Positions 23,398 to 27,689 of a DNA stretch of 64,000 nucleotides are shown one piece after another; the first letter of the stretch is position 1; each line of letters starts with the position of its first letter. The stretch is from Candidatus Kapaibacterium sp. GTDB taxonomy: Bacteria; Bacteroidota; Ignavibacteria; Kapaibacteriales; UBA2268. The DNA lies in NCBI GenBank assembly GCA_963664875.1, contig OY761611.1, positions 3,552,001 to 3,616,000 on the forward strand. The letters run 5' to 3'. A program made the position numbers and the translations under genes. The notes below the pieces were generated by a model. That model saw only the letters and a list, made by a program, of their open reading frames with translations. It searched no databases and had not been told where the DNA came from.

Positions 23398-24546
23398 TTA
23401 TTTGAAAATATAATTGAATTCAAGCTCTAATCTGTTTCGGGTGAGTTGATTTACATCTCCCTTATCGTTTATTTGATATCTGATACGCGGCGTAATATCG
23501 AAGCTACCCATGTCAGATGAATAGACTATCCATGTATATCCAGCCCAGATATATGTAAATTTATTATCAACTTCACTTCCATCGATGAGCTTATCAGTTC
23601 TGTTAGCATAATCTAACCAGGCTACTATCTTGCCGGGACCTACTTTTTTAGTAGTTTTCAGTCTCATAAATGTGGCTTGGTACTCAGTCGGAGTGTAGCC
23701 ATATTGTTGAGTTGCCGAAAGCTCTTTGGATTCTACGGATTGTTTGGAATAACCTCCGAACAAATCAAGAGTAAAGCCGGCAAGGTCTTTATGTCCAACG
23801 CTAAGTCCAAAAGTAGCTGGAGCAACTAATGAGTCATCTGCCAAAGTGTAAAGACCTTCGATACCAAAATATAATTTGTCGATATTGTGTTTGTAGCCCA
23901 AAGAAAAAGAATATTGATCGGTAAGATTTCTTTTTTCGTTGCCGTCTGCATATTTTTCTAAAATTCCTTTGTTATCGTCAACCATCACGGCAAGATTGAA
24001 CTGTCCGTCTCCAACTTTCAAGTAAGCATTACCACCATAGTATCCATCTGTATTGAAAATATAATATGGAATATCTACCATTTGTTTTGGATAAAAGTGC
24101 AAATCATAAATTGGATTACCCACCGCTCCGGCACGGTTTAAGCCAACGAGAAACCCGGAATAATTACCCTGAAAGCCAAAATTTAGTTCCATAAAGTCAA
24201 CAGATGATCTTTTAGCAGCGTCGTTCCCGGTCTGGTTAGGCGATAAATTACCCAAGACATCAGGATAGTCACCTTGAGAAAAATTTCCATTGTATTCGCC
24301 GATACCGTTATGACCGAACATTGTATTCATAATCCAGCCATTGCCGATGCTAATCTGTGCTTTAAGCCTGGCTCTGTACATATAGTAGAAATCTTGTGTT
24401 TTGGTTCCGTCGGGCTTGTCTGTTGCGTCTCTGGTATCCCAGCGAGGTCGAACTCTTGCATCTCCGCTGATTTTAATATCAGCTGCGAAAGACGGCAAAG
24501 CCATCGCTGCCAATACGATAAGTAAAAGAATTTTTTTCATACCCAT
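23398..24546 (-). CDS. Outer-membrane porin-like beta-barrel protein
   Basis: Signal peptide, mature N-terminus DIKISGDARVR, C-terminal LEFNYIFK. Confidence 0.7.
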   Translation of the reverse strand: MGMKKILLLIVLAAMALPSFAADIKISGDARVRPRWDTRDATDKPDGTKTQDFYYMYRARLKAQISIGNGWIMNTMFGHNGIGEYNGNFSQGDYPDVLGNLSPNQTGNDAAKRSSVDFMELNFGFQGNYSGFLVGLNRAGAVGNPIYDLHFYPKQMVDIPYYIFNTDGYYGGNAYLKVGDGQFNLAVMVDDNKGILEKYADGNEKRNLTDQYSFSLGYKHNIDKLYFGIEGLYTLADDSLVAPATFGLSVGHKDLAGFTLDLFGGYSKQSVESKELSATQQYGYTPTEYQATFMRLKTTKKVGPGKIVAWLDYANRTDKLIDGSEVDNKFTYIWAGYTWIVYSSDMGSFDITPRIRYQINDKGDVNQLTRNRLELEFNYIFK

Positions 24547-24731
24547 TTCTCCATTACTCTAATAAAACATATTACTTGTTAATACTTCTCTTTTATTTAT
24601 AGACTTAGAATATGCACATATATTTCTGATGCAGTATGCTCTGTATATTAGCCGATATATTGTGGCTTTTAGAGATACTGCGTCTTGTAAGCCAAACAAA
24701 AAGCAAGCCAAAAATGAAGAAGGGTTCGATT

Positions 24732-25262
24732 ATGTTCAAAAATGAGATTACTGCACTTAAAAACAGCTACAAAGGGGAGCAATATGATATTGCTTTTACA
24801 CTGTTAGAAGAAGCCTATTCTGCTTATGCAAAAGGTAACTTTGGGATTGCATCTTTGATATTTAAAAATGACAACATCATAGCTTATGGCCAAAACAGAA
24901 TGGTCTTTCCTACTTTTGCAAGCGGAATGCATGCAGAAATGGATGCTATCAATACTTTAGAAAACGACTATTCGAAGCTTGAAAATCTATCAGGGATTAC
25001 TCTTTATAGCTCTTTGGAGCCATGTCCTATGTGTCTGACTAGAATTATCAACAGCGGTATTGCAAACGTTTATTATTTAGCGACGGATAAATTAGGGGGA
25101 GGAGTGAGCTATTTAGATGCAATGCCTCCGATATGGAAAGAGCTTTCTGCTAAGGTGAAATTCCGAAAAATGCAATTGCCGGCAGAGTTTGAGAATTTAG
25201 CTGTCAAGTTAGCCTTTGCAAATGCAGAGAAGATACACCAAATAATCATAAGCAGACAGTAA
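24732..25262 (+). CDS. Zn-dependent nucleoside/nucleotide deaminase (TadA/guanine-deaminase fold)
   Basis: HAE and SLEPCPMC motifs; start 24732 chosen, ORF open from 24636. Confidence 0.88.
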   Translation: MFKNEITALKNSYKGEQYDIAFTLLEEAYSAYAKGNFGIASLIFKNDNIIAYGQNRMVFPTFASGMHAEMDAINTLENDYSKLENLSGITLYSSLEPCPMCLTRIINSGIANVYYLATDKLGGGVSYLDAMPPIWKELSAKVKFRKMQLPAEFENLAVKLAFANAEKIHQIIISRQ

Positions 25263-25688
25263 CTATCTGCCGAGAATATGTATAACGTGTTTCACTACTC
25301 CCTGAATTGCAAAATCATAAAAGCTCATAATTTCAAGGGGTAAGAATTTTTTATTGGCTGAGAATAAATATACTTTCCCGTCAATTACTTTGTAAGTCTT
25401 TACCAAAAGTTCGCCATTGACAGAGGCAATGACTACTTTCCCGGATTTTGGTAACTCAGTCGAATCGACCACAAGTATATCTCCGTCGAATATATTTTCG
25501 TCAATCATGCTCTCGCCATTCACTTTGACAAGGTACATACCCTCAGGTTTGGTTTTCAAAAGTTCGTTCAGATTGTACATCTTTTGACTGTTGGTATGAG
25601 TCAGTTTGCCAATCGGTACAGAAGCATTAAACAAAGGAGCTTCGTAATCTACTTTGCTTCGGACCGTACTTATCTTCTTAGCCTTCAT
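25263..25688 (-). CDS. UmuD-like S24 peptidase, catalytic dyad intact (S60/K97), cleavage site degenerate (VPIG)
   Basis: PLF..V, NLNELL, VNGESM, GDILVVD, GELLVK, GVV. Confidence 0.88.
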   Translation of the reverse strand: MKAKKISTVRSKVDYEAPLFNASVPIGKLTHTNSQKMYNLNELLKTKPEGMYLVKVNGESMIDENIFDGDILVVDSTELPKSGKVVIASVNGELLVKTYKVIDGKVYLFSANKKFLPLEIMSFYDFAIQGVVKHVIHILGR

Positions 25689-25703
25689 TACGCTCGCATC
25701 AGA

Positions 25704-26132
25704 TTATAAAGAGTGAATAATAGCAGTAATGACTCCAACCGGTTTGTAGCTAAGCTCTCCGATGTTAAGAGGTAAATATTGTCTGTCGTGTGATTCGAGA
25801 TACTCTTCGCCTTCTATTAGGCGGTAATTTTTGACTGTAAAGTTGCCGGACAAATCTACAAGTATCAATTTGCCATCTTCCGGTTCTAAAGCAGTGTCAA
25901 CGATGAGAATATCCTGGTCGCTTATGCCGTATGGTTCTAATTCCTTGCCGTTTATTCGAGCAAAGATAGTAGCTGCAGGGTGAGCTATCAGCAGTTCGTT
26001 CAAATCGATTTCTTTCTCAACTGTGCTGTCTGCCGGAGTAGGCAAACCAGCCGAGACACTCATCTGAAATAGAGGTATCTTTACTTCGGTCTCAGCTTGT
26101 GCTTCGAAACCGATTATTTCGATTGTAGTCAT
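25704..26132 (-). CDS. UmuD-like S24 protein, Ala-Gly site intact, catalytic Ser replaced by Glu
   Basis: PLFQMSVSAGLPTPA, IDLNELLIAHPAAT, INGKEL in place of SGDSM, FTVK. Confidence 0.88.
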   Translation of the reverse strand: MTTIEIIGFEAQAETEVKIPLFQMSVSAGLPTPADSTVEKEIDLNELLIAHPAATIFARINGKELEPYGISDQDILIVDTALEPEDGKLILVDLSGNFTVKNYRLIEGEEYLESHDRQYLPLNIGELSYKPVGVITAIIHSL

Positions 26133-26278
26133 TTCTTACTTCCAAATGTTTGTTTATGCTGCAAGAAAGGTCAAAACTTCTTTTTTCCCCCGAAGTTTTG
26201 CATTTATACAATTAAAATAATTTACCTCTAAAATCAAAATGAAATTTTATTAGCAGATAAAAAAAGATGTGTAGCTAA

Positions 26279-26869
26279 CTATCTTAGATCAATAATCTCT
26301 ACTTTGTCATCTGTTTTGATTTCAAAATCTGATTTGTCTTTGGGATTAGTATCTATTTTTTTGACTACAAGATGATTATCCTGCATTTCGTCTTTGATTT
26401 CTATTTCTTTTAAAACGTAATCGCCTGAAAATCCGAGTTTATATTTGCCGCCGCTTTCTTTGTCCTCAAGTTCCAATATATATTCAGAAATATATTTTGT
26501 GCCTGTAGATTTAATTAGTTTTACAGGTTTCATCTTTGCAAGCATTTTGAAAAAGAAAGTGTCCATTGATTCCAAATTTTCTTCGTAATCAGAAATTATA
26601 CATGTCTTGTCTTTTACGGAATAATTCCAGACATATTTGTAGTCAGAGCTTATGATTCTGTCAGGCAAATCAAGTCGATACCCTTTCCCTTTGCTGATAA
26701 AGACTTTCATGAAGGGCTTGGCTTCATTTGGCATGGCAAGTTCCAACAGCATCTTGTCTGTTTTAGTGTATTTCTCTTTGAGTTTTGCGAAAGCTGTGTT
26801 CATGTCCAAGGCATAGACAAATACCGGCACTATCAAAAGAAACAATAAACTTAAAATTTGCTTTTTCAT
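26279..26869 (-). CDS. lolA: Outer-membrane lipoprotein carrier LolA-like protein
   Basis: Signal peptide; ISSDYKYVWNYS; C-terminal VEIIDLR typical of FCB LolA. Confidence 0.7.
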   Translation of the reverse strand: MKKQILSLLFLLIVPVFVYALDMNTAFAKLKEKYTKTDKMLLELAMPNEAKPFMKVFISKGKGYRLDLPDRIISSDYKYVWNYSVKDKTCIISDYEENLESMDTFFFKMLAKMKPVKLIKSTGTKYISEYILELEDKESGGKYKLGFSGDYVLKEIEIKDEMQDNHLVVKKIDTNPKDKSDFEIKTDDKVEIIDLR

Positions 26870-26873
26870 GTGT

Positions 26874-27689
26874 TTAATCCTCAATTTTTGCATCTAATGG
26901 TCCGCGAAGTCCTTTGTAAGAAGTCAACTCTGCACCCACAAAACCGATGATTATTTTAGTAGCTACTTTTACAGGTATTTTTCTGTCGTCATCGCTCAGC
27001 CAAACCAGAATTTTTCCTTCAGATTTGAAGAGTCCGCCCTCGACTACCATTGGTTCTACTACGAGTGTTTTGAACTTTCCGGCTTCGACCTCTATTGTCT
27101 GTTTTCCGTGGTATTTGACACCGAGAGTGTAAGTAGAGTCTTTGTAGAAGTTTTTCAATTCGATTATAGAATCTTTTTTGATTTTGTCAAAATTCAAAGT
27201 TCTTACATAATATAGAGCGGATACTATATCGTGGACATATTCCGGCACATCGTGTTTAGTTGTGTCTTGTATAATTGCTTTATTATTGACCTGGTCGAAA
27301 ACGCATTCGAAATCGGTTTTATAACCTCCTTCTCTAATGTGCTGTTCAAACTTGTAAGGGAATATGCCTGCCACATCAACTACAGTTCTGTATTTATCCT
27401 GCACTTTGTATATCCATTCGAGTTCTTTCAATGATCTAACTTCAAAGCGGATATCGTATGCGTCTCTACCGTTTACTTTCACAGGTTTTGGCAAAATTTT
27501 GAAGTAACCGGTGCCTGCTGTGATGAATTTGTAGCCCACTTTATAATTAAGTGTTTCGCCAAAGCCGAAGGCTTCCTGCGGGATATAGCGGAATTGATTC
27601 GATTTAGTAGAAGTACTGTCCTTTTTGTTACCGGCAAATAGCGGCAAAGCACAAGTAAACAAAAGTAAAATAATAAGTATATTTTTCAT
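26874..27689 (-). CDS. DUF3108 domain exported protein
   Basis: FGFGETLNYKVGY, HDIVSALYYVR, VWLSDDDRKIPVK. Confidence 0.85.
   Translation of the reverse strand: MKNILIILLLFTCALPLFAGNKKDSTSTKSNQFRYIPQEAFGFGETLNYKVGYKFITAGTGYFKILPKPVKVNGRDAYDIRFEVRSLKELEWIYKVQDKYRTVVDVAGIFPYKFEQHIREGGYKTDFECVFDQVNNKAIIQDTTKHDVPEYVHDIVSALYYVRTLNFDKIKKDSIIELKNFYKDSTYTLGVKYHGKQTIEVEAGKFKTLVVEPMVVEGGLFKSEGKILVWLSDDDRKIPVKVATKIIIGFVGAELTSYKGLRGPLDAKIED

Follow-up and report, generated by a model that had tools for sequence, protein, structure and literature searches.

The window analyzed here, a 64,000-nucleotide (nt) stretch of a Candidatus Kapaibacterium sp. genome (contig OY761611.1, positions 3,552,001 to 3,616,000), carries two adjacent UmuD-like genes, here called A and B, that appear to share the work of one self-processing S24 protein. 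Gene A has kept the cleavage site and lost the nucleophilic serine, whereas gene B has kept the serine-lysine dyad and has a degenerate cleavage site. The pair is conserved in three families of its order, and we propose, with a probability of about 0.55, that it represents a split UmuD in which B cuts A in trans to give a UmuD'-like product. The parts of the pair are as follows (window coordinates).

25704..26132, minus strand: gene A, UmuD-like S24 pseudoprotease; 142 aa, acidic, isoelectric point (pI) 4.32; cut site kept, nucleophile lost
25263..25688, minus strand: gene B, UmuD-like S24 protease; 141 aa, basic, pI 9.18; Ser-Lys dyad intact, cut site degenerate
26046..26051, minus strand: A Ala28-Gly29, codons GCT GGT, opposite the bond cleaved in E. 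coli UmuD (Cys24-Gly25) in the alignment
25941..25943, minus strand: A Glu64, codon GAA, at the UmuD Ser60 nucleophile position
25830..25832, minus strand: A Lys101, codon AAA, at the UmuD Lys97 position
25689..25703, minus strand: A-B spacer of 15 nt, from the stop of A to the start of B
25608..25613, minus strand: B Ile26-Gly27, codons ATT GGC, in the Ala-Gly columns of family alignments
25509..25511, minus strand: B Ser60, codon AGC, nucleophile
25398..25400, minus strand: B Lys97, codon AAG, general base

Two UmuD-like genes with complementary defects

Both proteins fall in the S24 superfamily (Pfam PF00717, Peptidase_S24; A, 64.4 bits, E 9.9e-18; B, 79.1 bits, E 2.7e-22; cut-off 23.3 bits), and their best matches of solved structure were UmuD (4.4e-20) for A and UmuD entries (2.8e-16 to 1.4e-15) for B. 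The two are 34% identical to each other (45/132 residues, E 5e-25). When A was aligned to E. coli UmuD (8gmt_B), SAGLPTPA came to lie under QCGFPSPA, NGKEL under SGDSM, and FTVK under FTV(K/A) in the Lys97 strand. In the alignment of B, NGESM and LLVK were intact; its N-terminal 35 residues gave no phmmer alignment to UmuD, and Ile26-Gly27 was placed by family alignments. With Glu64 at the serine position, A is therefore a pseudoenzyme member of Peptidase S24: its dyad is incomplete (Lys101 kept) and that of B complete (Ser60 and Lys97), and the Ala-Gly cut site present in A (Ala28-Gly29) reads Ile26-Gly27 in B. A bulky residue at P1 is reported to block cleavage.

A sequence-only reading of this DNA had already described two co-oriented UmuD-like genes 15 bp apart, with the cut site and lysine kept and Glu64 replacing serine in the first, and an intact Ser60/Lys97 with isoleucine at the cut site in the second; the alignments and codons confirm each of these points. 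Its charge counts were also exact, with 24 D/E against 9 K/R in A and 15 D/E against 19 K/R in B. Across orthologues, A was acidic in 19 of 19 (median net charge -11) and B near neutral (median +1). Contigs from two studies, either of which may be the window's own source, were letter-identical to the window over 25200-26250, so Glu64 is not an assembly error.

Conservation and linkage of the pair

Gene A was used as a query against the window genome (a single contig of 3.83 Mb, 36% G+C) and 40 relatives, giving 41 genomes from its own genus, family and order. An A-clade gene was present in 20 of the 41, and B followed directly on the same strand in 18 of these. The exceptions were G010, with A and B on different contigs, and G009, whose contig ends just after A; the two genes co-occurred in every genome where both could be assessed (19/20, the twentieth being the one cut by its contig end). 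Pair-bearing genomes belonged to three families of the order (f1, f6 and f11). A profile scan of a species-representative collection identified 22 B-clade loci (at least 44% identity), assigned to Candidatus Kapaibacterium, Kapaibacteriales, Ignavibacteriota, Chlorobiota and similar, and A lay just upstream in 19 of the 21 complete ones. The other 58 loci scored lower and came from other groups; each of their units held a single S24 gene, in most cases with umuC behind it, and no tandem S24 pair occurred among them. Identical C-terminal parts were merged before counting (last 100 aa for orthologue counts, last 90 aa for the tree set), which left 35 distinct A, 35 distinct B and 33 linked pairs. 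All 33 were co-oriented with A before B, at gaps of -32 to 559 nt, so that the conservation in related genomes anticipated by the sequence-only reading extends far beyond the genus.

Two further loci bear on the distribution of the genes. One genome of the same genus (G002) has two copies of the pair (G002:C10:102138-102993 and G002:C20:46277-47134), 89% and 91% identical to the window A, which could stem from a true duplication or from a bin that mixes two strains. In G019 (88% complete), where no B-clade gene was found, an open reading frame (ORF) at locus L036 (G019:C39, 1495-1842, minus strand) encodes a 115-aa S24 relic without the N-terminal arm and without the serine (NGNKY). Its position immediately behind mnmA is occupied in some relatives by a solitary canonical UmuD.

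Reciprocal conservation of cut site and catalytic dyad

The Ala-Gly cut site was present in all 35 distinct A sequences. Their serine column read S in 8, E in 8, D in 6, N in 6, A, M and F in 2 each and R in 1, so that serine was lost in 27/35, and the lysine column read K in 29 and R in 6. Among the 35 distinct B sequences both Ser and Lys were invariant (35/35 each), and Ala-Gly was retained in only 8. The complementary losses seen in the window are hence family-wide and reciprocal. A three-way comparison of alignment columns that took in 30 canonical UmuD sequences gave the same division along the chain: UmuD positions 24, 25, 27, 51, 52 and 65 were conserved in A and canonical UmuD and not in B, and positions 60, 61, 88, 92, 93, 112, 118 and 130 were conserved in B and canonical UmuD and not in A. 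The xPLF motif of the A arm was also kept, with Pro20 invariant. This motif corresponds to UmuD residues 14-18, where mutation loosens the arm from the globular domain according to an excerpt of PMC5342242.

Ancient duplication and purifying selection

In a tree of 68 S24 sequences, A formed one clade (Shimodaira-Hasegawa-like approximate likelihood ratio test, SH-aLRT, 85), B formed another (99), and the two were sisters (95). Canonical UmuD copies from those genomes, whether umuC-adjacent or solitary, fell outside the joint clade; L014_1805 (a spurious overlapping ORF) and the arm-less relic at L036 were omitted. Matching sub-clades were recovered in the A and B trees. This branching order indicates that a UmuD-type gene was tandemly duplicated once, long ago, in the Kapaibacteriales lineage and gave rise to A and B. 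The earliest-branching A (G034) retains Ser and Lys, and the A tree requires at least five changes between serine and non-serine states, of which well-supported branches alone force one. Together with the diverse replacement codons in the serine column, this fits repeated loss of the serine in A under relaxed constraint once the nucleophile had become dispensable.

Within the genus, nonsynonymous divergence (dN) was 0.003-0.10 and synonymous divergence (dS) ranged from 0.34 to saturated. The ratio omega was 0.005-0.027 where measurable, in keeping with the dN/dS below 1 that had been looked for, and both A and B are under strong purifying selection. When compared to a 97.5%-identical strain, A differed at 11 nt, all synonymous and including GAA to GAG at codon 64, and B differed at 11 nt with one residue change. 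Glutamate occupied the serine column in all four distinct same-genus A sequences.

Predicted heterodimer and proposed cleavage in trans

Complex prediction for A with B gave a score of 0.73 (runs 0.73, 0.73 and 0.76) compared with 0.00 for the best of three controls; among solved complexes 58 of 80 reached the 0.73 mark, and among mismatched pairs 2 of 110 did. The partner had a predicted local distance difference test (pLDDT) value of at least 68, and agreement between runs covered at least 43% of contacts. The heterodimer postulated by the sequence-only reading is thus predicted by modeling, with an interface between A134-142 and B132-141 (the C-terminal strands) and between A41-50 and B38-48, and with residues 17 and 19-22 of the A arm touching B. 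Mixed dimers of E. coli UmuD S60A and non-cleavable UmuD offer a precedent, as trans cleavage in them was efficient and dependent on RecA bound to single-stranded DNA, as reported in an excerpt of PMC5342242.

Following this reasoning, A and B would divide the two halves of UmuD self-processing between them. B would be the enzyme, with its invariant Ser60-Lys97 dyad and the surrounding residues kept while its own cut site drifts, and A the substrate, with an invariant Val-(Ser/Ala)-Ala-Gly-x-Pro and the xPLF motif kept while the nucleophile and neighboring active-site residues drift. The two genes would be co-transcribed and their products would pair through the C-terminal strands in the manner of a UmuD dimer. 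B would then cut the Ala28-Gly29 bond of A in trans, probably in the presence of activated RecA (RecA*), a dependence that we infer, and release a 114-residue A'. The A'/B complex would act as a UmuD'-like accessory, whose most likely client in the window's own genus would be a UmuC encoded without an adjacent umuD. A dead A that guards its cut site beside a live B that has lost its own is what would be expected if B cuts A. We consider this cleavage step, taken by itself, slightly better than an even bet. A stricter version is held more tentatively, at somewhat short of even odds: A-B would be an obligate two-gene UmuD with strictly intermolecular maturation, in which B cuts only A on the RecA* signal and A'/B has replaced UmuD'2 for the distant UmuC in the window's own genus.

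UmuC, RecA, canonical UmuD and LexA

The sequence-only reading had found no umuC, dinB or lexA near the pair and had reasoned that the output might not be DNA polymerase V (Pol V). Neither a Y-family polymerase nor a LexA homologue was found in the window (3.552-3.616 Mb), so the first statement holds locally. It does not hold genome-wide, as a DinB-type gene (2275551-2276594), a UmuC-type gene (C1:2621442-2622686) and a LexA homologue (~2.89 Mb) lie elsewhere, with the two Y-family genes at 2.28 and 2.62 Mb. The UmuC-type gene scored 339 bits against the UmuC model and 166 against the best Pol IV model. It lies ~955 kb from the pair (C1:3577263-3578132), has no S24 neighbor, and is ~4 kb from recA, which is present in the genome. 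No umuC was adjacent to the pair in any of the pair loci examined. The genome encodes six S24 proteins; besides A, B and the LexA homologue, the remaining three, among them a solitary paralogue at C1:2411487-2411954, likewise lie outside the canonical UmuD clade, and no canonical UmuD is among the six. The same S24 set was found in the four other genomes of the genus (with A as query). UmuC was detected in 19 of 20 pair-bearing genomes compared with 6 of 21 pair-less ones, a contrast between related genomes and not an independent statistic. The output may yet be of the Pol V type, and the pair may serve the distant UmuC, a link in which we place less confidence than in the cleavage itself.

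Canonical UmuD copies of pair-bearing genomes carry SAGFPSPA, G[DN]SM and VKR. In several genera, at seven loci (L069-L072, L075, L076 and L079), umuC is distant from an intact, solitary canonical UmuD (SAGFPSPA, GDSM, VKR), which either precedes an acetylornithine-aminotransferase-like gene or follows mnmA; linkage of umuD to umuC is often absent in this lineage. The window genome's LexA homologue (G000:C1:2890628-2891314, minus strand, outside the window) scored 108 bits against the lexA model (cut-off 110.95), has arginine in place of the catalytic lysine, and has no Ala-Gly at the cut site. A LexA homologue was matched in only 14 of the 41 genomes at E 1e-15 or better. Among these (relatives L170-L182), the lysine was replaced by arginine in 14/14 and the serine by G, T or A in 7/14, and most lack the Ala-Gly site. 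Judged from these residues, the LexA homologue lineage looks non-self-cleaving.

Weighing the explanations

The observed duplication, reciprocal conservation, purifying selection, strict co-occurrence and co-orientation are the ground on which the explanations are weighed, and several findings count against cleavage of A by B. Eight of 35 A sequences keep Ser, seven of them with Lys, and could self-cleave, and eight of 35 B sequences keep Ala-Gly; the split is therefore a repeated relaxation and not an absolute rule. Linkage of A and B is missing in G010 and in a close relative. UmuC was not found with the query used in G020, which is 99% complete and has the pair. Most pair-bearing genera outside the window's own genus keep a canonical UmuD, by umuC or alone, so the pair is not merely a UmuD replacement. 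The complex score may reflect memory of the solved UmuD'2 dimer. Residues A26-31 and B Ser60/Lys97 lie outside the confident contacts, so that the cut site is not placed in the active site of B. Finally, what preserves the Ala-Gly loop could be RecA* binding or a pseudosubstrate role instead of cleavage.

This last point leads to the main rival, in which A is a never-cut pseudoprotease whose loop and arm dock in the cleft of B, as pseudosubstrate or inhibitor, or bind RecA*, and A-B is a non-processed manager or checkpoint factor resembling full-length UmuD. Confident contacts that leave out the scissile residues and the B dyad suit such a role. In the LexA-RecA* complex the cleavable loop contacts RecA extensively on both sides of the scissile bond (PMC11787620, in excerpt), and loop conservation can therefore serve binding; full-length UmuD also has functions of its own, such as binding of the polymerase III alpha subunit (PMC5342242, likewise in excerpt). 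What a never-cut A leaves unexplained is why Ser and Lys are kept in 35/35 B sequences with the surrounding catalytic residues, so that something is cut, with B's own site mostly gone, and why the exact P1-P1' Ala-Gly is invariant in A (35/35) when the equivalent loop of B drifts freely. We regard this rival as unlikely, though it deserves to be taken seriously. Less probable still is that A and B work separately, with B cutting another protein (an S24 paralogue or a LexA-like protein), A being cut by another protease such as canonical UmuD in mixed dimers, and adjacency reflecting shared regulation only. Many pair-bearing genomes do encode an intact canonical UmuD, the genes are unlinked in G010, and the genome's LexA homologue, which lacks its catalytic Lys, could be cut, if ever, only with the aid of another protein. 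However, A and B co-occur wherever both can be assessed (19/20) and stand in the order A then B in 33/33 linked pairs, canonical UmuD, which might have cut A, is absent from the window's own genus, most of the LexA homologues are themselves without Ala-Gly at the cut site, and an A-B heterodimer is predicted.

Cutting of A by itself, through Glu64 or another residue replacing the serine, is very improbable. Lys101 is kept in the window A and lysine in 29/35 orthologues, but the serine position is E, D, N, A, M, F or R depending on lineage, some of which are incapable of acting as nucleophile or base, and active-site positions 61, 88, 92, 93 and 112 are relaxed in A as well. We give almost no credence to a recent decaying duplicate, to an artefact of sequencing, or to membership of the pair in a mobile or defence element. 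Both proteins match UmuD-like phage families in PHROGs, yet the pair is conserved across families of the order with saturated dS and low dN, and its A and B trees have matching sub-clades. Sequencing error and recent decay were rejected on the identical contigs from two studies, the conserved same-genus Glu and the synonymous strain-level changes. The sequence-only reading had named an intact serine in A orthologues as a sign of such decay or error; 8/35 do keep it. A defence-system or mobile-element origin was rejected, as no PADLOC family matched A or B (0 families), the PHROGs matches were only to generic UmuD-like families, and the neighbors are housekeeping genes, with RNase HI divergent upstream in 7/18 extended loci.

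Comparison with known systems

E. coli UmuD/UmuD' shares its S24 fold family, its size and the absence of a DNA-binding domain with both proteins; A has in common with it the cut site position, the xPLF arm motif and the Lys, B the Ser-Lys dyad, and the predicted A-B dimer likewise forms through C-terminal strands. The difference is that in E. coli a single gene, located in the umuC operon, covers both functions as a homodimer, and A and B each hold half of the apparatus. In size and domain content (142 and 141 aa, S24 the only Pfam family) the two agree with UmuD. They are not in a umuDC operon, fall outside the canonical UmuD clade, and score below the cut-off of 110 bits for NCBIfam PRK10276 (UmuD, Pol V autoproteolytic subunit; A 93.1, B 90.1), which was nevertheless the best-scoring model for both. 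The A/B split is a variant within the S24/UmuD superfamily, and neither gene has all the defining features of UmuD. Scores for the HumD family NF051876 (A 56.8, B 32.1 bits, cut-off 120) and for the TIGR00498 lexA model (A 40.7, B 72.1 bits, cut-off 110.95, C-terminal part only) were also below threshold. LexA, UmuDAb and the CI-like non-canonical LexA of Bacteroidetes are likewise DNA-damage-response S24 proteins of the same broad bacterial group (PMC8565304, in excerpt). They differ from A and B, which lack a DNA-binding domain at the N terminus, Pfam giving S24 only and no helix-turn-helix family in either.

A close parallel is with the engineered UmuD mixed dimers, which follow the same logic of a nucleophile-less chain with an arm and an active chain without a usable arm. 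Those were laboratory mutants of one gene, whereas A and B are natural paralogues kept by selection across the order. In protease/pseudoprotease paralogue pairs of the ClpP/ClpR type, a dead copy is kept beside an active one and co-assembles with it as a structural subunit. In contrast, the dead A seems to act as the substrate, and nothing in it is more strongly constrained than its cut site. A literature search of main texts turned up no account of a natural gene pair that splits UmuD into enzyme and substrate; the supplementary tables of PMC8565304, with their Bacteroidetes UmuD homologues, may bear on the question.

Flanking genes and the region upstream of A

Two further features flank the pair.

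25251..25271, minus strand: terminator-like hairpin over the stop codon of B (consensus match only)
26133..26278, minus strand: region upstream of A, with an AT-rich box, a hairpin with a G-run and a second motif

The terminator-like hairpin likely marks the 3' end of an A-B transcript, and consensus matching found no terminator-like site between A and B on their strand. Convergent on B, a cytidine/deoxycytidylate-deaminase-family gene (window 24636-25262, plus strand; Pfam dCMP_cyt_deam_1, 2e-16) ends with its stop abutting that of B with no gap; among 18 extended loci, such a gene lay beside the pair only in the same-genus locus L051. An RNase HI gene is divergent from A in seven of the 18 (L040, L041, L043, L045, L046, L049 and L051), and the three longer of four copies read have a C-terminal extension after the RNase H domain. 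In the window genome this neighbor is replaced by a 204-aa gene without a family match, followed by a DUF3108 gene.

Upstream of A (all on the minus strand) are an AT-rich box TGTATAAATG at 26201-26210, a hairpin CAAAACTTC-GGGGGAAAAAA-GAAGTTTTG at 26172-26200 with a G-run in its loop, and a motif GCAGCATAAA at 26153-26162. The G-run GGGGG(G)A recurred in 23 of 32 non-redundant upstream regions of A orthologues (L014-L109) across genera, usually 13-24 nt after a TATATT-like box and often in a hairpin loop, with a stem sequence that varies from genus to genus. The motif GCATAAA was found in 11 of the 32, other genera included. The G-run element could be a 5'-untranslated-region element, a standby ribosome site or an operator. 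Rfam gave no match on 24500-27000 at E up to 1. Two motifs named for the Bacteroidetes SOS response, GGA-N5-TCC as well as CTAA-N5-TTAG (PMC8565304, in excerpt), were not seen upstream of A by eye, with no formal scan.

A shared G-run regulon was considered and rejected, as the genome-wide GGGGG(G)A listing had no sites at umuC, at recA or at the lexA promoter; many of the genomic sites lie just before start codons and resemble ribosome-binding sites. Three hairpins, each with GGGGGGA in the loop, occur at G000:C1:1852170-1852400 (plus strand) in a 660-nt gene-free stretch that adjoins an S24 paralogue (1852461-1853000, minus strand). This stretch may be a structured non-coding RNA; Rfam gave two sub-threshold, chance-level matches around it and nothing else. 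A sequence ending GGGGGGATTTATGG occurs in G000:C1 in at least seven identical copies (e.g., at 1389310, 1391041, 2078544, 2086429, 2173132, 2592116 and 3619219), each upstream of the same ORF start, and probably belongs to an insertion sequence with a G-run ribosome-binding site.

Significance

UmuD, LexA and phage repressors are textbook self-cleaving proteins, and to our knowledge cis versus trans cleavage within the dimer has been probed only with engineered mutants. In A and B the trans arrangement seems to have become evolutionarily fixed as two genes and preserved order-wide, in what looks like a natural version of the E. coli mutant-mixing experiment. Conservation is highest at the cut site in the dead copy and at the dyad in the live one. 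The pair would thereby offer a natural and directly testable system for intermolecular S24 cleavage and a clear case in which a pseudoenzyme has been kept for its role as substrate. It also provides a lead into the control of mutagenic DNA synthesis in a phylum that has received little study and whose LexA homologue appears to be non-cleavable. If A and B do form a two-gene UmuD, then, together with a LexA that lacks its catalytic lysine, the self-cleavage logic of the SOS response in Kapabacteria would have been rewired into separate enzyme and substrate chains.

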